Shown here piece by piece: positions 12,489 to 62,251 of a stretch of DNA of 64,000 nt. How positions within the stretch are numbered: the first letter of the stretch is position 1; each line of letters begins with the position of its first letter. The DNA comes from Dehalococcoidia bacterium. GTDB taxonomy: Bacteria; Chloroflexota; Dehalococcoidia; SZUA-161; SpSt-899. Made by a program: the position numbers and the translations under genes. The notes below the pieces were generated by a model, which ran no database searches, had not been told where the DNA came from, and saw only the letters and a list, made by a program, of their open reading frames with translations. The DNA is taken from the NCBI GenBank assembly GCA_048539495.1, contig JBLYPS010000001.1:82038-146037 (forward strand). The letters run 5' to 3'.

Positions 12489-12497
12489 CATGATGAG

Positions 12498-12628
12498 TGA
12501 TCCCGTAGGACGGGCATCTTGCCCGTCAAATGATTAGCAGTGATCCCGTAGGACGGGCATCTTGCCCGTCAAATGATTAGCAGTGATCCCGTAGGACGGG
12601 CATCTTGCCCGTTAATGCCCAATTAGCA
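12498..12628. repeat. three tandem 43-bp units, each carrying a GTAG-headed REP hairpin (GTAGGACGGGCATCTTGCCCGTC)
   Basis: The unit tgatcccgtaggacgggcatcttgcccgtcaaatgattagcag occurs three times; the third copy is slightly diverged. Each has an 8-bp stem with a 3-nt loop. Sits directly upstream of the RAYT gene. Confidence 0.85.
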
Positions 12629-25345: not shown

Positions 25346-27091
25346 GTGGAACGGTACAATCTAAGAATAGGTATCATCGGCGGTGGGCAACTGGGTAAGA
25401 TGATGACCCAGGAAGCGAAGAAGATGGGGTTTTATGTTACCATACTGGACCCCACGCCGAACTCCCCGGCCAGTCAACTGGCTGATGAGCAGCTCGTCGG
25501 CGATTTTCATGACCGGAATAAGATAAGAGAGCTTGTCACCAGGAGCGACGTAACCACCTACGACATCGAAAACATTGACGTAGGTGCCTTAAAAGAGCTC
25601 GTCGAGGCGGGACATGTTATCCACCCTTCTCCACAGATACTGGAGATCATCCAGGACAAGTGGAAACAAAAAAAGGTACTGGAGCGCAGCGGTATCCCTA
25701 TCCCGAGGTACAAGAAGGTCGAGGGGGATGCCCTCGCTGCTGCTGTTGAGGGATTCGGGTTTCCGGTGGTGCAGAAGGCCTGCCGGGGAGGCTATGACGG
25801 GAGGGGGGTATTCGTGATTCGTACCAGAGACGATATAGGAAAGGCACTCAAAGTGGAGTCCTTCCTTGAAGAATTTGTCGAAATCGAGAAGGAGCTCGCG
25901 GTAATGGTGGCAAGGAGTACTACCGGTGAGATCAAATGCTATCCGTTAGTGGAGATGGTCTTCGATGAGGCGGCCAACATCTGCGATATGGTTGTCGCTC
26001 CCGCCCTGGTGGAGCAAAAAATTCAAGACGAGGCCAGGCGAATAGCGGTTGCCGTGGTAGAGCCACTTGGTGGAGCAGGTATCTTTGGGATAGAGATGTT
26101 CTTAAGCAAAGCGGGGAATGTCCTGGTGAACGAGATCGCCCCCCGGCCTCATAATTCGGGGCACTATACCATAGAGGCTTGCGTCACTTCTCAATTCGAA
26201 CAGCACATTCGGGCGATCATGGAACTCCCGTTGGGCTCGACGGAACTGCTCACCCCAGCGGTAATGATCAACATTCTGGGTGAGGAAGGGCATGAGGGGC
26301 CGGCAATATTCCAGGGGATTCGAGAGGCTTTGCTCATCCCTGGAGCGAGTCTGCATCTGTATGGGAAAAGGGTTACCAGACCATTCCGCAAGATGGGACA
26401 TGTAACAGTAGTGGATAAGGACGCCGAGAACGCTTTCGAGAAAGCCCAGAGGATAAAGACACTTCTGCGAGTGGTTTCCTCTGACGAGTCGAGAGTCAAG
26501 AGTCAAGAGTCGAGAGTCGGGGAGGGGCGGGGGACTCCAGACTCCAGACTCCAGACTCCAGACTCCAGACTCCAGACTCGTAAGATGGTGGCAAGGGTAG
26601 GAATCATCATGGGGAGCGAGTCCGACCTCCCGGTGATGGAAGAGGCGGGGAAACTGCTGGAGGAGTTCGGGATTGGCCACGAACTTACCATTGTCTCCGC
26701 CCACCGGACGCCGGAGAGGATGTTTCAATATGCTCGCCAAGCGGAGGGGAAGGGGATTGAAGTGATAATCGCCGGGGCCGGCGGAGCCGCTCATCTCCCC
26801 GGCATGGTGGCCTCAATAACCCCCCTTCCGGTAATCGGTGTGCCGATCGAGACAACCCCCTTGAAAGGGCTGGACTCCCTTTATTCCATCGTCCAAATGC
26901 CGGCAGGAGTCCCGGTGGCGACCGTGGGGATAAATAACGGCCACAATGCCGCAATCCTGGCGATGCAGATTCTGGGGGTGAAGTATCCGCAGATCAGGGG
27001 GAAGGTGAAGGAGTATAAGCAGAGATTGCAGGAGAAAGTCGAGGAGATGGCGCGCAGGGTTGAGCAAAGAAGGAGGCAAGAGGAAGCATGA
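25346..27091 (+). CDS. purK-purE: PurK-PurE fusion: N5-carboxyaminoimidazole ribonucleotide synthase fused to N5-CAIR mutase
   Basis: N-terminal ATP-grasp (IGIIGGGQLGKMM...) followed by PurE (VGIIMGSESDLPVMEEA...GAGGAAHLPGMVAS). The two are joined by a linker encoded by heptamer element 26486..26580. Probable GTG start. Confidence 0.85.
   Translation: MERYNLRIGIIGGGQLGKMMTQEAKKMGFYVTILDPTPNSPASQLADEQLVGDFHDRNKIRELVTRSDVTTYDIENIDVGALKELVEAGHVIHPSPQILEIIQDKWKQKKVLERSGIPIPRYKKVEGDALAAAVEGFGFPVVQKACRGGYDGRGVFVIRTRDDIGKALKVESFLEEFVEIEKELAVMVARSTTGEIKCYPLVEMVFDEAANICDMVVAPALVEQKIQDEARRIAVAVVEPLGGAGIFGIEMFLSKAGNVLVNEIAPRPHNSGHYTIEACVTSQFEQHIRAIMELPLGSTELLTPAVMINILGEEGHEGPAIFQGIREALLIPGASLHLYGKRVTRPFRKMGHVTVVDKDAENAFEKAQRIKTLLRVVSSDESRVKSQESRVGEGRGTPDSRLQTPDSRLQTRKMVARVGIIMGSESDLPVMEEAGKLLEEFGIGHELTIVSAHRTPERMFQYARQAEGKGIEVIIAGAGGAAHLPGMVASITPLPVIGVPIETTPLKGLDSLYSIVQMPAGVPVATVGINNGHNAAILAMQILGVKYPQIRGKVKEYKQRLQEKVEEMARRVEQRRRQEEA
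26486..26580. repeat. heptamer-armed palindromic element: (GAGTCRA)x5, core ggaggggcggggg, then (ACTCCAG)x6
   Basis: Read directly. The arms are reverse-complement related through GAGTC/GACTC. Translated in frame as [37 protein letters not shown]. Confidence 0.85.
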
Positions 27092-27755: not shown

Positions 27756-28865
27756 ATGGCCAGAATCTTAGACGGGTATCAAACGGAGGCGATAAAGGAA
27801 GCGGCATCCCTCATTCAAAAAGGGGGGGTCGTGGCTTTCCCGACGGAGACGGTCCACGGGCTCGGGGCGGATGCCTTCAACCCCAAAGCCGTAGCCCTCA
27901 TTTTCGAAGTTAAGAAGAGACCCCGTTTTGATCCTCTCATCGTCCATATCGCTGAACTTTCCGATGTGAAGAAGGTTTGTCTTCACGCCGATGATCGAGC
28001 AGGGAAAGTGATGGAGTGGTTCTGGCCGGGGCCTTTGACCGTGGTGCTTCCGAAGACGCCGGAGGTGCCGGATATTGTGACGGCGGGACTTCCCACTGTC
28101 GCCGTGCGCTTACCCTCCCATCCGGTTGCCTTAAGCCTCATCCGCGAGGCACGGACGCCCATCGCCGCTCCCAGTGCCAATCTCTTTGGCTATCTCAGCC
28201 CAACGACAGCGGAGCATGTAAATGAGCAGCTCGGCAGCGCAATCGAGATCATCCTCGACGACCAACAGTCGGCAGTCGGCAGTCGGCAGTCCGGGGCGGG
28301 GTGGGGGACTAGCGACTATCGACTATCGACTTGGAATCGAGTGGGGGTGGAGTCCACCATTATTGACCTCTCTGAAGAGGAACCCGTCCTCCTGCGCCCC
28401 GGTGGAACGCCTCTGGAGGAAATCGAGAGGGTCATCGGGAGGGTAAAGATCCCGCCTCATGATCCCCAGCAACCCCGTTCTCCGGGGCAGCTTCCCCATC
28501 ACTATTCCCCCCGCACCCCCCTCAAGATTCTGCTTGATGAAGAATTGAGTATTGAGTATCGAGTTTTGAGTTTTGAGGAGGGGGGAGGGACTCCAGACTC
28601 CAGACTCCAGACTCCAGACTCCAGACTCGAGAGGGTTGGCCTTCTGGCATTCCAACGTCCCCGGGAGGGAGATTTTGCGGCAATTGAAGTTCTTTCCCCC
28701 TCCGGAGACCTCCGTGAGGCGGCGGCGAACCTGTTTGCGGCGCTCCACCGGCTTGATTCTGCCGGACTTGATCTTATCCTCGCCGAACCGGTTCCCGAGG
28801 GGGGGCTCGGCCGGGCGATCATGGATCGACTGCGCCGGGCAAGTGGAGTCCTGAGTCGAAGGTAA
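27756..28865 (+). CDS. tsaC: L-threonylcarbamoyladenylate synthase (TsaC/Sua5 family, with Sua5 C-terminal domain)
   Basis: VAFPTETVHGLGADAF..., PLIVH, GPLTVVL and APSANLFG motifs. It carries two in-frame heptamer elements, at 28267..28333 and 28546..28630. Confidence 0.85.
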   Translation: MARILDGYQTEAIKEAASLIQKGGVVAFPTETVHGLGADAFNPKAVALIFEVKKRPRFDPLIVHIAELSDVKKVCLHADDRAGKVMEWFWPGPLTVVLPKTPEVPDIVTAGLPTVAVRLPSHPVALSLIREARTPIAAPSANLFGYLSPTTAEHVNEQLGSAIEIILDDQQSAVGSRQSGAGWGTSDYRLSTWNRVGVESTIIDLSEEEPVLLRPGGTPLEEIERVIGRVKIPPHDPQQPRSPGQLPHHYSPRTPLKILLDEELSIEYRVLSFEEGGGTPDSRLQTPDSRLERVGLLAFQRPREGDFAAIEVLSPSGDLREAAANLFAALHRLDSAGLDLILAEPVPEGGLGRAIMDRLRRASGVLSRR

Positions 28866-28871
28866 TCCGAT

Positions 28872-29273
28872 ATGAACCAGCTAACATTTTTTGAAAAAGA
28901 GGAAAAACAACTAATCAATTTAAAAGAAGCGAGCAATTGGGCTTCGCAATACTTGAACCGTAACGTTACAATTTCGAACATCTCATATTTGCTCCAATAT
29001 GGAAGAATAAAGAAATACGGGAGTAGTGGCAATCCCTTGATAAATATTGAGGAACTTAAAGATTATTACGCCTCTTATGACAAGGAAGAACAATGGAAAG
29101 GGAAATTGGGGACAGACCTTAATTGGCGTTTGTCTTTTGTGGAATACAAAGAATCAGAAAGAACCAAACACGTTCACAGACTACATCCTTACAAAGGAAA
29201 ATTTATACCTCAATTAGTAGAATATTTTCTTGGCGCTCATACTGACGAATTTAAGCAAGGGGAGATATTATGA
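28872..29273 (+). CDS. hypothetical protein of the AT-rich island; its C-terminus carries a short motif like the HPxxKPxxLxxxI helix of N4/N6 MTases
   Basis: About 30% GC. ...TKHVHRLHPYKGKFIPQLVEYFL. Overlaps the next ORF by 4 bp. No FxGxG or DPPY motifs, so it is not a complete MTase. Confidence 0.4.
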   Translation: MNQLTFFEKEEKQLINLKEASNWASQYLNRNVTISNISYLLQYGRIKKYGSSGNPLINIEELKDYYASYDKEEQWKGKLGTDLNWRLSFVEYKESERTKHVHRLHPYKGKFIPQLVEYFLGAHTDEFKQGEIL

Positions 29274-29479
29274 AAACATTTGAAGTTGTTTTAACAAAAT
29301 CATATATTGTTAGAATAAAAGCAGAGAGCGAAAAGAAAGCAAAAGAATATTCAGAGTTATTTACGGGCGATATTCAGGATATTTCATCGATTGATTATAG
29401 AAAAAAGTTCAATTTTGAAATAGAAGATATTAATTGTAAGATAAATGAATCTTTTGAGGTTCAAGAAGAATTACTATGA
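29270..29479 (+). CDS. hypothetical small protein (69 aa), translationally coupled
   Basis: ATGA overlaps at both ends. AT-rich island codon usage. Confidence 0.35.
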   Translation: MKTFEVVLTKSYIVRIKAESEKKAKEYSELFTGDIQDISSIDYRKKFNFEIEDINCKINESFEVQEELL

Positions 29480-30336
29480 AAAAGATTAAAACACAAGTAT
29501 TATTGGGTGATTGTAAAGATATTTTGAAAAATTTTGAAAATGATTGCATTGATTTAATATTTACATCCCCTCCTTACGCGGATAGACGTGTTCATTCATA
29601 TGGTGGGATTAAACCTGAAGAGTATGTTGACTGGTTTTTATTTAGAAGTGAACAATTTTTAAGGGTATTAAAACCAGAAGGTACATTTATATTAAATATT
29701 AAGGAAAAAGCAGAAAAAGGTGAGCGACATACCTATGTTTTAGAACTAATTTTAGCATTAAGAAAACAGGGTTGGTTATGGACAGAAGAATTTATTTGGC
29801 ATAAAAAGAATTGTTATCCTGGAAAGTGGCCAAATCGTTTTCGTGATGCTTGGGAAAGATTGCTACAATTCAATAAAACTAAAAAGTTTAAAATGTTCCA
29901 AGAAACAGTTAAGATACCTGTTGGTGACTGGGTTGAAGATAGATTAAAGAACTTAAGTGAAAAGGATAAAATAAGGTTTGAATCAAGGTCAAAAAGCGGC
30001 TTTGGGAAAAATATTTCAAATTGGTTAAAGCGTGACAAAGTTTATCCTACAAATGTATTACATTTGGCAACTGAATGTAGTAATAAAAATCATAGTGCTG
30101 TTTTTCCAGAAGGTTTACCAGAATGGTTTATAAAACTGTTTACAGAAGAGGGAGATACTGTATTAGATCCCTTTATGGGTTCAGGCACAACATTAAGAGT
30201 TGCCAATAGAATAAGAAGAAATTCAATAGGAATTGATATTGTTTCAGAATATTATGAAATGGTGAAATCTGAAATAAAAGAGTGTGAATATTTATTATTT
30301 GAACCAAAGGCGAAATATGAAATTAAATCTAAATGA
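29476..30336 (+). CDS. DNA methyltransferase, beta-class N6-adenine/N4-cytosine (PF01555-like)
   Basis: Motif IV TSPPY near the N-terminus. HSAVFPEGLPEWFIKLFT followed by motif I DPFMGSGTT near the C-terminus. This circular-permuted order defines the beta class. Confidence 0.85.
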   Translation: MKKIKTQVLLGDCKDILKNFENDCIDLIFTSPPYADRRVHSYGGIKPEEYVDWFLFRSEQFLRVLKPEGTFILNIKEKAEKGERHTYVLELILALRKQGWLWTEEFIWHKKNCYPGKWPNRFRDAWERLLQFNKTKKFKMFQETVKIPVGDWVEDRLKNLSEKDKIRFESRSKSGFGKNISNWLKRDKVYPTNVLHLATECSNKNHSAVFPEGLPEWFIKLFTEEGDTVLDPFMGSGTTLRVANRIRRNSIGIDIVSEYYEMVKSEIKECEYLLFEPKAKYEIKSK

Positions 30337-31063
30337 AGTAAAGGAATATGCAGAAAAGCATATTTCCACTTTTCATCAAAAACGACTTGAATATGTTTCA
30401 ACTACAATTAAATTAGATAAAATTCTTAAGCAGAAAAATCCTTATTTATTCAGGGCTAAAAATATTTTGACTGCCCAAGACTTAATAAAAGGTTTTTTAG
30501 ATGCCTTTCTTCAATCTCAGGAAGAAACTTTATTTGGTGAATTTATTGAGGGTTTAGCAATTTTTGTATGCAACAAAGTTTTTAGCGCGAAAAAACCACC
30601 GTTAACAGGAATTGATTTGGAATTTGAAAAAGAAAATTGCATCTACATTGTAGAAATAAAAGCTGGATGGAATTGGGGCAATGCAAGCCAAATTAAGCAG
30701 TTGAAAATTAATTTTGAAAATGCCAAAATTTTTTTAGAAAAACAGACAGGCAAAAAAGTCATTGCTGTAAACGGATGTTGTTTTGGAAAAAAGAAAAATA
30801 GAAACCCTGAAAAAGATGGTTACTATAAAATTTGTGGACAAGAATTTTGGCAATTAATTTCGGGAAGTGAAAATTTATATGTTGATATTATTGAACCGAT
30901 TGGGCACAAGGCAAAACAAAAAAATGAAGAATTTCTCGAATCTTATGCTGTTGTCGTAAATAAATTTACATTAGAATTTGCTCAACGGTTTTGTATAGAT
31001 GGGAAAATTGATTGGAAGAAACTTTTGGAATTTAATTCAGGACAAATAAAGGAACATAAATAA
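30317..31063 (+). CDS. PD-(D/E)XK nuclease-like protein (candidate restriction endonuclease subunit)
   Basis: GIDLEF...ENCIYIVEIKAG gives a D...E-x-K arrangement. About 30% GC. Confidence 0.5.
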   Translation: MKLNLNEVKEYAEKHISTFHQKRLEYVSTTIKLDKILKQKNPYLFRAKNILTAQDLIKGFLDAFLQSQEETLFGEFIEGLAIFVCNKVFSAKKPPLTGIDLEFEKENCIYIVEIKAGWNWGNASQIKQLKINFENAKIFLEKQTGKKVIAVNGCCFGKKKNRNPEKDGYYKICGQEFWQLISGSENLYVDIIEPIGHKAKQKNEEFLESYAVVVNKFTLEFAQRFCIDGKIDWKKLLEFNSGQIKEHK

Positions 31064-31086
31064 TGAGTTTCTATCCGTAAATTAGA

Positions 31087-31728
31087 ATGGCATTATTCTC
31101 TTTTATCCATTCTTTGAACACTATATTTGGGACATCTATTTTTGAGCCTGTTGCTGAAACGATAGCAAGTTTGAGTTTTGAATTCGCACAAAAACAGTAT
31201 ATAATTGGCGACACTATAAGTGAACAAGCCCAGTCTGAAATTCAACGTATTATGAATGATCTTACGATAGGAAAAACACCAAACAAGACTGAAGAAATAG
31301 AAAGGCTAAGAAAAGTATGCAATAAAGGAAGAATGAACAAATTAAAAACTGTAAAAGTAGATTTATTTGTTCAAAGCGCTGATGAAACAGCCTATTTATT
31401 TGATTTAAAAACAGCCAAACCGAATATCAGCAATTTTAAAGACTTTAAAAGAACATTGTTAGAATGGGTTGCCATTTTTTTGGCAAGAAATCCTGACGCA
31501 AAGGTGAGCTCATATATTGCTATTCCCTATAATCCCTATGAACCAAAACCTTATGAAAGGTGGACGCTAAAAGGAATGTTAGATCTGGATCAAGAATTAA
31601 AGGTGGCAGAAGAACTATGGAATTTTCTGGGGAATGATGCTGTCTATGGAGAATTACTAAATTGTTTTGAAAAAGCAGGTATTGAATTAGGACCAGAAAT
31701 TGATGCCTATTTTTCAAAATTCAAGTAA
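31087..31728 (+). CDS. PD-(D/E)XK nuclease-like protein, distant paralogue of the preceding gene
   Basis: VDLFV...AYLFDLKTAK gives D...D-x-K. Same motif spacing and context as 30317..31063. Confidence 0.45.
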   Translation: MALFSFIHSLNTIFGTSIFEPVAETIASLSFEFAQKQYIIGDTISEQAQSEIQRIMNDLTIGKTPNKTEEIERLRKVCNKGRMNKLKTVKVDLFVQSADETAYLFDLKTAKPNISNFKDFKRTLLEWVAIFLARNPDAKVSSYIAIPYNPYEPKPYERWTLKGMLDLDQELKVAEELWNFLGNDAVYGELLNCFEKAGIELGPEIDAYFSKFK

Positions 31729-31863
31729 AAAGCAATAGGGCAATAGGATTAAGGGTGAAAATGCCCACAACGACAGATAACACGAGCTATACGGCTCACT
31801 TCATCCGCCCAAAGTTCGGCTTCGCCGAAACTTCGTATATGATGAAAACGTTGGAGGAAGATA

Positions 31864-32826: not shown

Positions 32827-33968
32827 AGGCGATACTGGTATTAGAAGATGGGACGGTGGTTGAGGGAAAGGGATTTGGATCTATTGGCAAAGCCCGGGGA
32901 GAGATCGTCTTCGCCACCGGAATGAGCGGCTACGTTGAATCATTAACTGATCCCTCCTATGCCGGCCAGACGCTGATGTTCACCTACCCCTTGATAGGGA
33001 ATTATGGGGTCAATGAGGAGGACTATGAATCGGATGGAATAAAGGTGGAAGGGATTGTGGTAAGGGAAGTCTGCCACCGGCCGAGCAACTGGAGATCCCA
33101 GAAGAATCTGGAGGAGTTTGCGCTTGAATTCCAGACCCCCGGTATTTGTGGAATCGACACCCGTCGCCTCACCAGAAAGATCAGGACCCATGGAACGATG
33201 AAAAGCGTCCTTCAGACGTTTGCCGGAGGTGAGGAGGTGAACCTGGAGGCTTTGAAGAGGGAAGTTAGGGAACAGAAGGGCATCTCCGAATTGAATCTGG
33301 TGGGGGGAGTCACCACGGTCGGGGCTAAACGAGTCAAGAGTCAAGAGTCGAGAGTCACGGGGAGGGGGACTCCAGACTCTGGACTCTGGACTCTGGACTC
33401 CAGATATGAGGTGGTGCTCGTAGACTGCGGTGCCAAGAGGAGCATCACGGAGAATCTACTGTGCCGGGGAATAAACGTCACCCTTCTTCCTTTCAACACT
33501 TCAGCGGAGGAAATTCTAGGTTATAATCCCGATGCGGTGTTGATTTCCAATGGCCCGGGCGACCCGGCGGTGGTGAAGGAAACCATCGCCACGGTGAGTA
33601 AGCTCATCGGCAAAACCGTGCTTTACGGAATCTGCCTCGGGCAGCAGATCATCTCCCTTGCACTGGGTGCCCGAACATATAAGCTGAAGTTCGGGCATCG
33701 GGGTTTGAATCAGCCGGTGAAAGACTTTGAAACAGGGAGGGTCTTTATTTCCACCCAGAACCACGGCTTCGCCGTTGCCGAGGAGGGGCTGGCGGAAATC
33801 GGGCTCGAGGTGACCCACATCAATCTGAATGATAATACCATTGAGGGCTTGAAACATAAGGAGCTCCCCATCAGAATGGTTCAGTATCACCCGGAAGCCG
33901 GACCCGGCCCGCATGACACCTATTCCTTCTTCGATTCGTTGATGGACGACATTTCCCGGAGGCATTAA
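32823..33968 (+). CDS. carA: carbamoyl-phosphate synthase small subunit (glutamine amidotransferase)
   Basis: MKAILVLEDGTVVEGKGFG.., GICLGQQ (catalytic Cys) and the HPE motif. Heptamer element 33331..33404 lies in frame at the inter-domain linker. Confidence 0.9.
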   Translation: MKAILVLEDGTVVEGKGFGSIGKARGEIVFATGMSGYVESLTDPSYAGQTLMFTYPLIGNYGVNEEDYESDGIKVEGIVVREVCHRPSNWRSQKNLEEFALEFQTPGICGIDTRRLTRKIRTHGTMKSVLQTFAGGEEVNLEALKREVREQKGISELNLVGGVTTVGAKRVKSQESRVTGRGTPDSGLWTLDSRYEVVLVDCGAKRSITENLLCRGINVTLLPFNTSAEEILGYNPDAVLISNGPGDPAVVKETIATVSKLIGKTVLYGICLGQQIISLALGARTYKLKFGHRGLNQPVKDFETGRVFISTQNHGFAVAEEGLAEIGLEVTHINLNDNTIEGLKHKELPIRMVQYHPEAGPGPHDTYSFFDSLMDDISRRH

Positions 33969-34012: not shown

Positions 34013-35482
34013 ATGGGGGATCAAATGACAATAATACCAAAATGCATGAGCACCCAACATCCTGACAATGTGAATCCCCCGTTTTTTGCCGAGAACACTG
34101 TACTTGGCGGAGAGGACGAGATACAAGAAGTATACTATGTCTTTTCTCATTTAGGTTGTGATGAGCAGATGTGGGATTATGAAGGGAAGGAAGTTGATAA
34201 TTATGTAGTTAAAAAACTGTTGACAAGATACGAACCTTTTTTCAGGGATAAAAGACTAGGCAAAGATGTCTTTGTAACCTTAAGAGTGCCTAATCCTACT
34301 GAAGAAAAAGCCGAGGCAAAAATTTTATTGGAAACCCTGGAAAGCATACCCAGGTCATTTGATGCCGCTAAATTATTTTACCGAGATGATACACCTCCAA
34401 TATTCGAGGTTATCTTACCAATGACAGCCTCTCCCGAGTGTATTGATAGGATTTATAGGTATTATTGCGATTTCCTTGTAGGCAGGAGAAATAAACCACT
34501 TAAAAAAGGCGATATAACAATTGCTGAATGGGTTGGAGAATTCAAGCCTGAAAGAATTAACGTCATACCTCTCTTCGAAGACATGAAACACATGCTTGAT
34601 GCCCACAATATAACAAGAACATACTTACAGGACAAGGATTTAGAATACCAGAGAGTTTTTCTGGCACGCTCGGATCCAGCAATGAATTACGGGCTTGTTA
34701 GCACTGTTTTTGTAAATAAAATTGCCCTTCAAAGATTACACAAATTATCTGAGGATATTGGTGTTAAAATATACCCTATCATTGGTATGGGGTCAGCTCC
34801 TTTTAGAGGCAATCTCAAACCACAGACAGTAGAAAGGGTGGCAAAAGAATATCCAAGCATTCATACATTTACCATTCAATCCGCATTTAAATATGACAAC
34901 CACCCTGATGAAGTTAGAGAAGCTATAAGAAAGCTACAAAAAAGAAAAATAGAGCCACCTCAGGAAGTAGATGAGGAGAGATGCTTGGAAATAGTTAGGA
35001 AATGTTCTCAAGAATACCAAACCCAAATAGAAGGATTAGCACCAGTGATCAATGAGGTTGCCAAGTATGTTCCGCCTAGAAGGAAGAGGAAATTACATAT
35101 CGGGCTATTCGGCTATGCCCGTAGTATGAGAGGAATTACATTACCAAGGGCAATAACATTTACCGCCGCCCTTTATTCTATAGGTTTGCCACCAGAAATT
35201 CTTGGTTTGAATGCTTTGGATGAAGGTGACATTCAATTTATTAAGAAGGTTTACGTAAACTTTGAAGATGATTTAAGAGATTCCCTAAAATACGTTAACC
35301 CGGATACAGGTTTCCTACCCCAAAATCTGAAAGCAAGGGTTAGAGATTTTCCGATAGATATCGAAGTTAATGAAGAGCACAAAGAAATAACAGACTATGT
35401 TCTGAGTTCATTAAGAGAAAACAGGGGCGATTTAGGAAATTATGTTTTAAGAGCAGCTAATTTAAGAAAATTCCTTGGATGA
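34013..35482 (+). CDS. ppcA: archaeal-type phosphoenolpyruvate carboxylase (atPEPC/PpcA)
   Basis: The N-terminus ...IPKCMSTQHPDN is diagnostic of atPEPC. About 490 aa. GC is clearly lower than the flanking carA and carB. Confidence 0.8.
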   Translation: MGDQMTIIPKCMSTQHPDNVNPPFFAENTVLGGEDEIQEVYYVFSHLGCDEQMWDYEGKEVDNYVVKKLLTRYEPFFRDKRLGKDVFVTLRVPNPTEEKAEAKILLETLESIPRSFDAAKLFYRDDTPPIFEVILPMTASPECIDRIYRYYCDFLVGRRNKPLKKGDITIAEWVGEFKPERINVIPLFEDMKHMLDAHNITRTYLQDKDLEYQRVFLARSDPAMNYGLVSTVFVNKIALQRLHKLSEDIGVKIYPIIGMGSAPFRGNLKPQTVERVAKEYPSIHTFTIQSAFKYDNHPDEVREAIRKLQKRKIEPPQEVDEERCLEIVRKCSQEYQTQIEGLAPVINEVAKYVPPRRKRKLHIGLFGYARSMRGITLPRAITFTAALYSIGLPPEILGLNALDEGDIQFIKKVYVNFEDDLRDSLKYVNPDTGFLPQNLKARVRDFPIDIEVNEEHKEITDYVLSSLRENRGDLGNYVLRAANLRKFLG

Positions 35483-35619: not shown

Positions 35620-38469
35620 ATGCCAAGAAGGTCTGATATAGAAAGGATCCTGCTCATCGGGTCCGGCCCGATCATCATCGGGCAGGGCTGCGAGTTCGAT
35701 TACTCCGGGAGCCAGGCTTGCAAGGCGCTGCGGGAGGAGGGCTATGAAGTCATTCTGGTCAATTCGAACCCGGCAACGATCATGACCGACCCGGAGATGG
35801 CAGTGGCGACTTACATCGAACCATTGACCCCAGAGGTGATCGAAAAAATAATCGAGAAAGAAAGACCGGACGCTCTCCTCCCCACCCTCGGCGGTCAAGT
35901 TGGACTGAACATCGCCGCCGAGCTCTCCGAACGGGGAGTCCTCCAGAAATATAACGTGGAGCTTATCGGGGCCAAGTTCGAGGCAATCAGAAAGGCCGAA
36001 GATAGGATTCTCTTCAAGGAGGCAATGGAAAGGATAGGCCTGCGGACTCCGCGGAGCAAAGAGGCTTATTCGGCGGAAGAGGCGACAAAAATTGCCGAGG
36101 AGATCGGCTACCCCGTGGTTATCAGGCCGGCCTACACCCTGGGGGGAACCGGGGGCGGAATAGCCTTCAACCGGGAGGAGCTGGAGGTGATATCCGCCAG
36201 GGGCATAGAGTTCAGCCGCATCGGGCAGGTTCTTATTGAGGAGTCGGTCATCGGTTGGAAGGAATATGAGCTTGAGGTGATGAGGGACCTGGCCGACAAT
36301 GTGGTTATCATCTGCTCGATAGAGAACCTGGACCCCATGGGGGTTCACACCGGCGACAGCATCACCTGCGCTCCAGCCCAGACTTTGACCGACAGGGAAT
36401 ATCAGGAGATGCGCGATGCTTCCATAAAGGTCATGCGAGAAATTGGTGTTGAAACCGGGGGCTCGAATATTCAGTTTGCCGTAAATCCCCAAAACGGAGA
36501 AATGGTAGTCATCGAAATGAATCCCCGGGTGAGCCGAAGCTCCGCCCTAGCATCAAAGGCCACCGGATTCCCCATTGCTAAGATCGCCGCCAAACTCGCC
36601 GTCGGGCTCACCCTGGATGAGATACCGAATGATATAACGAAGGAAACCCCCGCCTCTTTCGAGCCAACCATAGATTATGTAGTGGTCAAGATGCCCCGAT
36701 GGCCCTTCGATAAGTTCCCCGAGGCGGATAAGACGCTCACCACGCAGATGAAATCGATCGGCGAGGCGATGGCACTGGGGAGGACATTTGAGGAAGCCTT
36801 GCAGAAGGCGGTGAGGTCGTTGGAGATCGGGAAGTACGGATTAACGAGTCGAGGGTCAAGAGTCGAGAGTCCAGAATCACGGGGAGAGGGACTCCAGTTG
36901 ACGGGCAAGATGCCCGTCCTACCAGACTCCAGACTCCAGACTCCAGATAGTCTTGGGGAGGAATTGCTCAACAAGCTGAGATTCCCGGTCGCCGAAAGAA
37001 TCTTCCTCGTCGCAGAGGCTTTCAAAAGGGGAATTCGTGTGGAAGAGGTGGCCGAACTCACCAGGATCGACCCCTGGTTTCTGGAGAAGGTCAAGAACAT
37101 CACGAGTCTAGAGTCTAGAGTCGAGAGACTCCAGTTGACGGGCAAGATGCCCGTCCTACCAGACTCCAGACTCCAGACTTCAAATCTCATCCCCCGGGAG
37201 CTAATGCTCGAGGCGAAGAGGATGGGTTTCTCCGATAGACAACTCGCTGATCTCTTGAAGACCGATGAGCTGGAGCTTCGGGGCAAAAGAAAGGAAATGG
37301 GGATAGTTCCAACATATAAGCTGGTGGATACCTGCGCCGCCGAGTTCGAGGCCAAGACTCCTTATTACTACTCTTGTTATGAAGATGAGGATGAAGTCGA
37401 GGTAACGCCAAGAAAGAAAATGCTCATAATCGGCGGGGGGCCGAACAGGATAGGGCAGGGTATTGAGTTTGACTATTGCTGCGTTCAGGCGGTTTTTGCC
37501 CTCAAGGAAGAGGGGTATGAAACCATAATGGTAAATTGCAATCCAGAGACGGTGAGCACAGACTACGACACCGCGGATAGACTATACTTTGAGCCTTTGA
37601 CCTTCGAGGATGTCTTAAACATCATCGAAAAAGAAAAGCCCGATGGAGTGATTGTTCAGTTCGGCGGTCAGACGCCTTTGAATCTGGCTATCCCTCTGGA
37701 GAAAGCGGGGGCGAGAATAATAGGAACCTCCACCAATTCCATTGATATGGCCGAAGATAGAAAAAGATTCAGCGCGCTCTTGCTAAGATTGGGCATTCCT
37801 CAGGCTGAGAATGGGACCGCTCTCTCCCTTGAGGAGGCGCTGAAGATAGCAGCAAGGATTGGTTACCCTGTTCTGGTCAGGCCTTCCTATGTGCTGGGTG
37901 GGAGGGGAATGGAGATAGTTTACGACGAGGAAACTCTGGTGAGGTACATGCGGGCAGCAATAGAAATATCTCCGGGAAAGCCGGTCCTGGTAGACAAGTT
38001 CTTGGAAGAGGCCACCGAGGTTGAGGTGGATGCCATCTTCGATGGGGAGGATCTCATGATCGGAGGGATAATGGAGCACATCGAGGAAGCGGGGATCCAT
38101 TCCGGTGACAGCGCCTGTGCTTTGCCCCCCCAGAACCTGGCCACTGAGACCCTAAGGGTGATAAGGGATTATACCGACAAGATCGCCCGGGAGCTGGATG
38201 TGAGAGGGTTGATGAACATCCAGTTTGCGGTGAAGGACGGGAGGGTGTATGTCCTGGAGGTGAATCCAAGAGCGTCCCGGACTGTGCCCTATATTAGCAA
38301 GGCGAGCGGCGTTCCCCTGGCGAAGATAGCCGCTAAAGTGTTGCTGGGCAAAACCTTAAAGGAACTGGGGGTGATGCGAGTCGAGAGTCGTCGAGAGTCG
38401 AGAGTCGGGGAGGGGTGGGGGACTCCAGAGCGAAGCGTCTCCAGACTCCAGACTCAAAACTTCCTGTAG
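35620..38469 (+). CDS. carB: carbamoyl-phosphate synthase large subunit, N-terminal about 90% (frame ends inside a heptamer element)
   Basis: Both ATP-grasp halves (two GSGPI(V)IGQG.EFDYSG motifs) and the oligomerisation domain, with in-frame elements at 36846..36946 and 37103..37183. The frame terminates at 38469 inside element 38377..38454. Confidence 0.85.
36846..36946. repeat. heptamer-armed element with REP core (TTGACGGGCAAGATGCCCGTCCTAC at 36898..36923) inside carB
   Basis: (GAGTCGAG-type 7-mers), the REP hairpin with its CTAC tail, then (AGACTCC)x3. In frame: [36 protein letters not shown]. Confidence 0.85.
37103..37183. repeat. second heptamer-armed element with REP core (37135..37160) inside carB
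   Basis: gagtctagagtctagagtcgag, then the REP, then agactccagactccagact. In frame: [26 protein letters not shown]. Confidence 0.85.
38377..38454. repeat. degenerate heptamer-armed element at the carB frameshift point
   Basis: gagtcgagagtcgtcgagagtcgagagtc, core ggggaggggtggggg, then gactccagagcgaagcgtctccagactccagactc. The arm units are irregular. The two carB ORFs overlap here in different frames. Confidence 0.8.
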
Positions 38470-60652: not shown

Positions 60653-62251
60653 TACCCGCTTCAGCCTGGGGTTGGGGGTGATACCGGGGATTCTGCCTCG
60701 CTTGGCGATGGGCTTACCTTCAACCTCGTGCAGATCGGCGGTGAAATTGATCGGCCTGGTATCGCTGATATAGCTTCCCACGGCAAAGGTATCGACCGGT
60801 GCCCCACTGTCCAGGAAGTATCTGATTCGCTCCGGGTCGATGCCCCCGCTGACGTATATCCTGACATCCTTGAAACCGGCAAGGTCAAGCCTGGCCCTGG
60901 TCTCCTTTACCAGATCGGCGGTGACCCGGCCTCTTTCGGAAGGCGTATCGAGCCTTATCCCCTGCAGCCTTCCACCCATTGCCCGGGCTACGATGATGCT
61001 CTCCTCGGGCTCGTCGCGGAAGGTATCTACCAAGGCAATGCGGGGTACCTCCGGGGGCATGTGCTTGTCAAAAGCGAGGGTGGCCCTGGCGGTGTCACCC
61101 ATGACTATGATCAGGGCGTGAGGCATGGTGCCCATCGGCTCCTGTCCGGCAAGCTTAGCGCCGGCTGTAGAGGCACAGCCGCCACATCCCCCGACGATGG
61201 CAGCGTACTCCATTACCCCAACTACCGAGGGGTGAACATGGCGAGCACCAAAGCTGATGACCGGGATTCCCTGGGCCGCTTGCACGCACTCCCGAGCAGC
61301 AGTGGCCCAGCCGCTGCAATGCGCCAGAATACCCAGATAGACGGTCTCATATATGGCATAAGATTGATAGGGCGCAGTTATGCGCAACACCACTTCTTTT
61401 TTCTGGAAGGAGTCTCCCTCAGAGAGAGCCCATACCTCGATGGGGTCTGAAGTCTGGAGTCTGGAGTCTGGAATCCCCCTCCCCTCGACTCTTGACTCTT
61501 GACTCTTGACTCTTGACTCTTGACCGGTAAGCACCCGGGAAAGCAGGTCGAGAACTTCATGCATGCCGCAGAGGATACCCTCACTCCTGGGAAAGACCTC
61601 CATGGTGGCAACCGGATTGAGTCCCTCGCGCTTGAGGATTTCTTTGGTGCGCACAAAGTAGATGTCGGTGGTCTCGCCGGAGAGGACGGACTCCGCGACC
61701 GTAAAGTGAGGACGGGGGATTTCCAGTGGCGTCGGCGGGATGAGTTTGGCGCCGAGGATTCTTTCCATGTGATCGAGGGCGAAACGGTGTGCTTGTTGAT
61801 CCATAGAGGCCACGCAGTCGGTGGGAACTTCGACCGTGTAGCCGCGGTTTCTGGCATCGGCGACGGTATGCAGAACGCAGATGTTGGTGCAAACGCCGCA
61901 GACGATGAGCTTCTCCGGTGCCAGCTCCTTTAGTTTCCCTTCGAGCGCGCTCTCGAAGAAACCGCTGAATCGATTCTTGGGGATGATCTCGCCGGGAATC
62001 GCAGCCAGCTCGGGGATGACCTCGGCTTCTCCTGTTCCGGCGATGCAGTGGGGAGGGAACATCTCGAATTCGAGGTCGTCCGGGGTATGATTATCGCAGA
62101 TAAAGAAAACCCTGGACCCCTGAGATAATTCTTGTTCTAACCGTCTCTTAACATTCGGAATGATATTGCGTGCTAAATCGCCACAATAAAGGGGGTATCC
62201 TTTCTCCAGGAAGCCCCTTAGCATGTCTATCACAAGCACTGCAGTAGTCAT
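60647..62251 (-). CDS. pncA-pncB: nicotinamidase (isochorismatase-fold, PncA) fused to nicotinate phosphoribosyltransferase (PncB)
   Basis: N-terminus: AVLVIDMLRGF...KLIVCGVCTNICVLHT (catalytic Cys) ..YTVEV. C-terminus: NAPRTase-like (...GTMPHALII...YVSGGID...). The two are joined by a linker encoded by element 61447..61524 ([24 protein letters not shown]). Confidence 0.8.
   Translation of the reverse strand: MTTAVLVIDMLRGFLEKGYPLYCGDLARNIIPNVKRRLEQELSQGSRVFFICDNHTPDDLEFEMFPPHCIAGTGEAEVIPELAAIPGEIIPKNRFSGFFESALEGKLKELAPEKLIVCGVCTNICVLHTVADARNRGYTVEVPTDCVASMDQQAHRFALDHMERILGAKLIPPTPLEIPRPHFTVAESVLSGETTDIYFVRTKEILKREGLNPVATMEVFPRSEGILCGMHEVLDLLSRVLTGQESRVKSQESRVEGRGIPDSRLQTSDPIEVWALSEGDSFQKKEVVLRITAPYQSYAIYETVYLGILAHCSGWATAARECVQAAQGIPVISFGARHVHPSVVGVMEYAAIVGGCGGCASTAGAKLAGQEPMGTMPHALIIVMGDTARATLAFDKHMPPEVPRIALVDTFRDEPEESIIVARAMGGRLQGIRLDTPSERGRVTADLVKETRARLDLAGFKDVRIYVSGGIDPERIRYFLDSGAPVDTFAVGSYISDTRPINFTADLHEVEGKPIAKRGRIPGITPNPRLKRVL
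61447..61524. repeat. heptamer-armed element (reverse orientation) inside pncA-pncB: (AGTCTGG)x3, core aatccccctcccc, (TCGACTC/TTGACTC)x6
   Basis: Read directly. In frame on the minus strand. Confidence 0.85.

Follow-up and report, generated by a model that had tools for sequence, protein, structure and literature searches.

A type II restriction-modification system probably nested in the remains of another on a Dehalococcoidia contig

Several described systems bear on an AT-rich island of five open reading frames (ORFs) in a 64,000-nucleotide (nt) stretch of DNA from a Dehalococcoidia bacterium (contig JBLYPS010000001.1, positions 82,038 to 146,037 of the forward strand; the whole stretch is called the window below). 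The island contains a complete methyltransferase gene (M) and two nuclease-like genes, R1 and ORF5, of type II restriction-modification (R-M) systems. Among type IIP systems of the PmeII/AvaII/EcoO109I group, PmeII cuts GGWCC, and a 5-methylcytosine (m5C) GGWCC motif was identified by MFRE-Seq in its source, P. mendocina (10.1101/2021.02.10.430591); EcoO109I cuts RGGNCCY (PMC7337904). The TdeIII family (PF09520) moves between distant bacteria, for example from Treponema denticola-like sources to H. pylori PeCan4 (PMC3467074), and an R-M system can be lost without cell killing if another system protects the same sites (PMC3874152). In R-M incompatibility and replacement as conceived by Kobayashi, a resident system disappears or is inactivated when another is present, the documented cases being plasmid competition or locus substitution through flanking host genes. 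Heterodimeric enzymes such as BbvCI, Bpu10I and BslI are encoded by two nuclease ORFs beside one or more methyltransferase genes in one operon, and controller (C) proteins are the products of small genes in R-M operons. The island shares features with each of these, and differs from each.

The island is probably made up of two type II R-M systems, an intact inner one nested in the remains of a destroyed outer one of the TdeIII/HinfI family. Its five ORFs all lie on the + strand, and its GC content is 0.25-0.37 across about 28850-31750, compared with 0.50-0.63 on either flank; the AT-rich five-gene island of an earlier, first-pass annotation of the window is therefore real. In an intact reference cassette, L001, the gene for a 534-residue methyltransferase is followed directly by that for a 257-residue endonuclease. 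Two blocks of the island align with this cassette by blastn: window 28856-29258 with L001 1624-2026 (85.1% identity, covering 16 nt of leader and M codons 1-129), and window 31083-31740 with L001 3374-4032 (84.2% identity, covering R codons 44-257 and a further 12-13 nt). The island thus extends from 16 nt ahead of the start codon of the outer M to 12 nt past the stop codon of the outer R. Between the two blocks, a segment of 1,824 bp, which opens at the ribosome-binding site (GGGGAG) of ORF2, stands in place of 1,347 bp of the reference (L001 2027-3373) that encode residues 130-534 of M and roughly residues 1-43 of R. The locus is therefore like a TdeIII-type R-M cassette in that ORF1 and ORF5 are 85% and 84% DNA-identical to the ends of one, and unlike it in being broken, with 405 M codons and about 44 R codons replaced by another R-M system. 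The GC content, together with the 84-95% DNA identity of cassettes in unrelated taxa, supports a foreign origin of the island. The features are listed in Table 1.

Table 1. Features of the island, in window coordinates.
Feature	Coordinates	Strand	Basis
Whole AT-rich island, footprint of the outer TdeIII-type R-M cassette	28856..31740	+	blastn vs L001, GC profile
ORF1, 133 aa; 5' remnant of a 534-aa alpha-order methyltransferase, left homology arm	28872..29273	+	tblastn, PADLOC
Inserted segment, 1,824 bp	29259..31082	+	gap between the two blastn blocks
ORF2, 69 aa; conserved small acidic protein	29270..29479	+	translationally coupled (ATGA) to ORF1 and the methyltransferase
Inner methyltransferase (M), 286 aa, complete, beta-class	29476..30336	+	PF01555
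Inner endonuclease R1, 248 aa (259 aa from 30284), complete, PmeII/EcoO109I family	30317..31063	+	PF14511
Right junction spacer	31064..31086	+	alignment of window, L017, L019, L020, L029, L001, L072, L002
ORF5, 213 aa; 3' remnant (codons 45-257) of a TdeIII/HinfI-family endonuclease, right homology arm	31087..31728	+	PF09520, alignment

ORF1 is the N-terminal quarter of the old methyltransferase, since the first blastn block covers codons 1-129 of the L001 gene. Over these residues the two proteins are 88% identical (tblastn; 85% at the nucleotide level), and ORF1 matches positions 10-132 of the 541 of the PADLOC profile PDLC03249 MTase_II (E 1.8e-48). The motif HPYKGKFIPQLVEYFL of ORF1 is motif X of the outer methyltransferase. 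In the intact L001 protein DPFCGSGTT comes after HPYKGKFIPQLVEYFL and SSPPY 290 residues later; in ORF1 both motif I (FxGSG) and motif IV (SPPY) were sought and neither is present, the ORF stopping just past motif X. It has no Pfam match of its own and no recognisable DNA-binding domain. One of two suggestions made for this ORF from the sequence alone, that it might be the remnant of a second methyltransferase, is borne out by the match to the intact protein.

ORF5 lacks the other end of its gene. It matches PF09520 (RE_TdeIII) with an E-value of 2.4e-74 at profile positions 44-242 of 242 only, and the PADLOC REase_II profiles match it only from position 56-64 onward. Among the 120 best listed homologues, 113 have at least 255 residues, mostly 257, so that ORF5 is not a complete protein. 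The alignment shows that the 44 missing N-terminal residues include the conserved PFHxRLLGxDR motif of full-length members, and that E20, D92, D106 and K108 are retained. The spacer ahead of ORF5 preserves, in decayed form, codons from about 38 to 44 of the outer R gene (LLGxDR), and in the window it has lost 2 nt and contains an in-frame TAA; the ATG at 31087 has no Shine-Dalgarno sequence upstream. The homologue list includes TdeIII-family endonucleases, 81-89% identical in protein sequence, annotated from Methanosarcinales, Chloroflexi, KSB1, Sulfurimonas, Thermodesulfovibrio, Jettenia, Actinobacteria and Argoarchaeum. This cross-domain spread of the TdeIII-type cassette is unusually recent and broad for a single R-M cassette.

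The same five-part composite occurs at unrelated chromosomal sites in several genomes: a Paceibacterota metagenome-assembled genome (MAG; L017, with the related contigs L018 and L019), a Clostridia MAG (L020/L033) together with L021, a contig that starts inside the methyltransferase gene, and a Brocadiaceae MAG (L029). A decayed version is found in the Dehalococcoidia MAG CSMAG_2522 (L009-L012 and L096). The window, L009, L017, L019, L020 and L029 share their left junction (at L001 nt 2026) as well as their right one (at L001 nt 3373/3374), and these common break-points in copies from unrelated organisms argue for a single origin of the composite. Judged by synonymous divergence (dS), the arms are much older than the inner cargo: between the window and L017, dS is 0.13-0.29 for ORF2, M and R1 and 0.96 for ORF5, and is saturated for ORF1.

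The arms are of mosaic ancestry. The 2.28 kb from ORF1 to R1 do not differ at a single position between L017 and L019; 23 differences follow, all in the right arm. At the protein level the right arm of L017 is 98.6% and that of L019 97.2% identical to full-length enzymes of 258 residues, and the two arms are 95.8% identical to each other. The left arm of L009 matches the intact M gene of L001 with 95.3% DNA identity, a match that takes in 79 nt ahead of the gene; its protein identity to the left arm of the window is only about 85%, with a dS of 1.3. The simplest reading of these patterns would be repeated homologous recombination, within the arms, between composites and intact TdeIII-type systems. 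Neither L001 nor L179 lies in a genomic context related to that of any composite locus.

In the decayed composites of L009-L012 and L096, the outer M remnant and ORF2 are followed by a frameshifted inner M and by an R1 that ends after residue 69 and is fused to an integrase fragment; then come a 451-residue protein of no assigned family, a HaeII-family endonuclease and a 750-residue methyltransferase. This arrangement is a three-layer R-M graveyard beside a tyrosine integrase.

The inner methyltransferase matches PF01555 over profile positions 1-220 of 221 (E 7.5e-44), with FTSPPY (motif IV) near the N-terminus and DPFMGSGTT (motif I) near the C-terminus, in agreement with its first-pass description as complete. 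Its closest solved relative is the N4-cytosine (m4C) enzyme M.PvuII, matched over residues 8-260 with an E-value of 1.5e-28; the adenine methyltransferases MboIIA and RsrI match at only 1e-11 to 1e-12. Because of the SPPY motif and the kinship with M.PvuII, the enzyme is probably specific for N4-cytosine. In this the pair differs from PmeII and EcoO109I: M.EcoO109I is an m5C enzyme, and the partner of R1 is of the beta class, M.PvuII-like and probably an m4C enzyme.

R1 fits the whole PF14511 (RE_EcoO109I) profile (E 2.3e-72, positions 2-198 of 198, 197 positions in all), and a homologue at 90% identity carries the NCBI name 'PmeII family type II restriction endonuclease', as do other close homologues the family name PmeII. 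As in the PmeII, AvaII and EcoO109I systems, M and R are adjacent and co-directional, here overlapping by 20 nt, and are also found on small plasmids. The alignment places the start of R1 at the ATG at 30317, matching its homologues, and shows that the family-invariant residues E69/E70, D100, E113 and K115 are kept. A direct tie of R1 to the solved EcoO109I or AvaII structures was sought and not found: in PDB searches with phmmer and with a 12-sequence profile, up to an E-value of 10, the solved EcoO109I chain was not matched, and the locus differs from EcoO109I to that extent. The D...(D/E)xK motifs that had been quoted for R1 and ORF5 as signs of nucleases are present. The two are not detectably paralogous, as had been supposed; they belong to two different Pfam families and give a BLASTP E-value of 0.26 and an hhalign probability of 0.3%.

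M and R1 also occur as a pair without extra genes, in genomes of the candidate phyla radiation, in many of 71 genome loci, and on small mobilizable plasmids of Acinetobacter, Klebsiella and Citrobacter. Relatives of R1 were sought among viral contigs and none was found; only the methyltransferase has a relative in a phage, Salmonella phage SE2. When the window is compared with L017, M has a ratio of nonsynonymous to synonymous divergence (dN/dS) of 0.25 and R1 one of 0.24 (range 0.24-0.31 with ORF2 included), and contigs of the same population (L003-L008) differ by at most one single-nucleotide polymorphism in the 2.1 kb of the inner cassette. The inner pair looks like a normal, self-sufficient type II R-M system, and the inner segment is most likely an active one. 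It would be very surprising if the whole island were a dead relic, that is, decaying foreign DNA in which the inner methyltransferase, R1 or both are inactive as well. Such decay does occur elsewhere, as in the frameshifted methyltransferase and curtailed R1 of L009-L012 and in the fragmentary R1 of L082, L091 and L093-L097; in the window, however, both genes are full length and keep all family-invariant residues, and the dN/dS values and near-identity within the population just given speak against inactivity.

The two remnants, by contrast with the inner pair, are probably without enzymatic role and decaying. Across the 71 loci the outer R gene starts at residue 3, 11, 24, 39, 54, 58, 92, 111, 124, 151, 182, 192, 217 or 229, leaving remnants elsewhere that are from 250 down to 28 residues long, and the outer M gene ends at about residue 45, 80, 129, 422 or 527. 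Some remnants carry lesions: that of L018 is frameshifted, and that of L034 is interrupted by six stop codons. At highly conserved columns, truncated copies show private changes about twice as often (1.7 versus 0.81; p = 0.012, one-sided Mann-Whitney test). Within the population of the window itself, the ORF1 of contig L004 contains a palindromic element of 74 nt. The element (L004 3756-3829, corresponding to window 29070-29080) resembles a miniature inverted-repeat transposable element (GGCTCTTGCAAAA...TTTTGCAAGAGCC) with a target duplication of 9-11 bp, and there is no copy of it in the window.

A different view of the remnants, that they have been co-opted for non-enzymatic tasks and are kept by selection, ORF1 as a regulator of the operon and ORF5 as a DNA-binding or decoy protein, seems unlikely to us. 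ORF1 is open, at 115-135 residues, and coupled to ORF2 in composites where it is only about 61-63% identical to the ORF1 of the window, and its dN/dS between the window and L009 is 0.06, both of which would fit such a role. The ORF1 of L009 is, however, 95% DNA-identical to an intact M gene, so that its constraint would have been inherited rather than earned as a fragment. ORF1 also ends within the catalytic domain, just past motif X, and has no DNA-binding domain that we could recognise; many loci retain only 35-70 residues of it or none, and the insertion in L004 has broken it within the population itself.

The first-pass annotation had seen in the island one methyltransferase with two nuclease subunits, possibly a heterodimer or a nicking pair. 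A functional three-part system of this kind, with ORF5 as a second endonuclease, as heterodimer partner of R1 or as nicking subunit, now also seems unlikely. It draws on part of the evidence that weighs against our own reading of two nested systems, one of them destroyed. The reading frame of ORF5 is open, and all its putative catalytic residues (E, D and DxK) are kept, in the window and in most composites (L017, L019, L020, L029 and L033), even at 61% identity (L020 and L029), and its dN/dS is low, at 0.06-0.16. We attribute the low ratio to recent exchange with functional genes, the alternative being selection on the truncated protein. In L049 (1730-4322), M, R1 and ORF2 are followed by a full-length TdeIII-type R of 259 residues with no adjacent 534-residue M, so that this enzyme would need protection by the inner methyltransferase. 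In L072 (104-4216), an intact outer M of 528 residues, ORF2, the inner M, R1 and an outer R of 228 residues are all open frames. These two arrangements make co-function of the inner and outer systems conceivable; they may be earlier stages of nesting, or a sign that the inner methyltransferase protects against the outer R.

Against a three-part system stand the loss from ORF5 of a conserved motif with its first 44 residues, the want of a ribosome-binding site, the in-frame stop just upstream in the window, and the remnants of all lengths elsewhere, down to 28 residues and some with stops or frameshifts. R1 and ORF5 are not detectably related, unlike the subunits of known heterodimeric enzymes. 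BbvCI, Bpu10I and BslI resemble the locus in the arrangement of two nuclease ORFs beside methyltransferase genes in one operon; here the nucleases are not detectably homologous, are not obligately linked, and one is truncated. Nor does either pair require the other's nuclease: M and R1 stand alone on plasmids and in many genomes, as do the 534-residue methyltransferase and the 257-residue endonuclease in L001, and the nearest relatives of the arms are full-length enzymes of intact systems. ORF5 is better taken as the 5'-truncated gene of the destroyed outer system, and the apparent set of one methylase and two nucleases, a tempting misreading, would then be two systems of which one is dead.

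The further points that count against two nested systems concern the fold of R1, the history of the site and the recognition sequences. The AlphaFold2 model of R1, made from a shallow alignment, has a mean pLDDT of 66.9 and shows a long helix, strands at IDLEF and IVEIK, and then a helix and a strand, an order that fits the alpha-beta-beta-beta-alpha-beta core of the PD-(D/E)XK fold. With a model at pLDDT 67, Foldseek gave no significant match in the PDB (best E 0.16); many of the top weak matches, none of them significant, are what we take, by our own classification, to be PD-(D/E)XK-type nuclease domains. With neither a sequence link to EcoO109I nor a significant fold match, it is the Pfam model that assigns R1 to its family. 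Close relatives of which one has the intact cassette and the other the composite at one chromosomal site were not found, and replacement in situ was thus not seen directly. A metagenome scan with Sua5 for close relatives of the host gave sequences at most 57% identical, without synteny.

As to recognition sequences, the specificities of the inner and outer systems may be related and of the GGNCC type, as their family names suggest; the site of TdeIII is GGNCC. One tool labels the PF09520 family HinfI (GANTC), and GANTC members therefore exist in it. In the part of the window that surrounds 28856-31740, no other of the 16 XYNY'X' palindromes is as depleted as GGNCC, and the depletion extends to all four central bases. 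GGNCC occurs 168 times, against 388 expected under a first-order Markov model (observed/expected ratio, O/E, 0.43) and 243 under a maximal-order model (O/E 0.69), in 61 kb of host sequence and with models that make no correction for codon usage; as a sign of GGNCC specificity the depletion is suggestive only. GANTC is not depleted (O/E 1.0-1.1). CCNGG and CGNCG are over-represented in the same host sequence.

If the island is indeed an intact system within a destroyed one, the inner operon (ORF2, M and R1) would probably be transcribed by read-through from the co-directional sua5 gene, since this lies only 6 nt upstream and the outer leader is reduced to 16 nt, and translated as a coupled operon. 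The inner methyltransferase would shield the chromosome, and R1 would restrict incoming DNA. The composite could move between organisms by horizontal transfer and homologous recombination, with the remnants acting as homology arms through which the inner cassette swaps out the middle of a resident intact TdeIII-type system. A single double crossover would knock out the resident M and R together, and the replacement would be survivable since both resident genes are lost at once. Perhaps the incoming methyltransferase would also cover the GGNCC-type sites of the resident, as in R-M incompatibility, and so avoid post-segregational killing.

We put forward more tentatively, as an idea that may well prove wrong, that the inner cassette is a specialised 'usurper' bearing fragments of its rival's M and R genes as arms, with ORF2 as a new accessory or establishment factor of several unrelated type II R-M pairs. 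TdeIII-type cassettes are very widespread, and wherever one is resident the usurper could enter by double crossover and remove the catalytic parts of its rival. The likeness to R-M incompatibility and replacement lies in the loss or inactivation of a resident system in the presence of another, and in that both families have GGNCC-type members, although a shared site at this locus would be read from family names. The difference lies in the flanks, which are fragments of the rival's own genes in place of host genes, with the same junctions recurring across phyla. To our knowledge, and as far as a literature search that was not exhaustive goes, a usurping cassette with its rival's gene ends, identical junctions across phyla and recombining arms has not been described. 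The gene content is ordinary, a type II R-M system with pseudogene fragments, and the gene families are known; what is modestly novel is the nested, recurrent architecture and the 69-residue protein. The locus would be a natural case of one R-M system overwriting another, recurring across phyla, in which Kobayashi's ideas on R-M competition and incompatibility become testable on sequence data and by simple transformation.

The 69-residue protein, ORF2, is joined to ORF1 and to the methyltransferase gene by 4-bp ATGA overlaps, just as the first reading of the window had it for the first three ORFs. Its homologues form about 100 clusters, none with a Pfam domain, and its model (pLDDT 91.8) has the order strand-helix-helix-strand with no structural neighbour in the PDB. 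No helix-turn-helix family was matched in Pfam or NCBIfam, and the protein is acidic by our residue count; for these two reasons ORF2 is not a classical controller protein. It resembles one as a small gene in operons of several different R-M gene pairs, and is unlike one in lacking a helix-turn-helix, in its acidity, in its variable position in the operon and in having no fold match. In operons with the M and R1 pair, it may come first, in the middle or last. ORF2 could be an establishment or regulatory factor; in any case it represents a small, conserved and confidently modelled family without known relative, which travels with several unrelated R-M gene pairs. In L013 (5001-7237) a homologue heads a BanI/DpnII-like R and another M, between housekeeping genes. 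In L002 (131-1972) one precedes an NmeDI_C-like gene and then a TdeIII-type R truncated differently, at L001 nt 3340, and in L015 (5001-5289) one stands with a methyltransferase stub of 24 codons, followed by genes of no assigned function.

The island fills the gap between tsaC, a Sua5/TsaC-type gene (PF01300 and PF03481; called sua5 here), and a gene whose P-loop resembles that of HprK only weakly and which precedes carA; all run in the direction of the island, and the location given in the first-pass annotation is correct. The first 10 nt of the island (28856-28865) supply the host sua5 gene with its stop codon and the two codons ahead of it (CGA AGG). The insertion has therefore rewritten the 3' end of sua5, these codons falling within the homology to the foreign leader. 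Terminal repeats and target duplications were sought at the termini of the island, giving only chance AT-rich matches. The contigs L003-L008, found by way of ORF2, represent the same population and carry the island.

The pentamers GAGTC and GACTC had been thought extremely over-represented in heptamer elements of the host. They are indeed concentrated inside heptamer arrays; across the window they are not in excess, with 72 and 71 occurrences against about 67 and about 58 expected from base composition. None lies in the island, and a link between the island and GAGTC was rejected on these two grounds. The arrays are paired tandem heptamers, such as (GAGTCGA)n, about 14 nt and (GACTCCA)n, located in host genes (the PurK/PurE fusion, Sua5, CarA and CarB) and read in frame as peptides such as SQESRV... 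The host sequence, 61 kb in all, contains about 30 arrays, and the island lacks them; examples are at window positions 26486-26579, 28266-28331, 28544-28632, 33331-33404, 36846-36947, 37104-37179 and 61441-61524.

A second stretch of low GC content (0.37-0.44) lies between carA and carB, at 34013-35482. It encodes an archaeal-type phosphoenolpyruvate carboxylase of 489 residues (PF14010, E 3.5e-197) and looks like another horizontally acquired insertion, splitting the conserved carA/carB pair. At 12496-12612 the window contains a perfect 43-nt tandem repeat in 2.7 copies, with an internal inverted repeat (CCCGTAGGACGGGCATCTTGCCCGTC).

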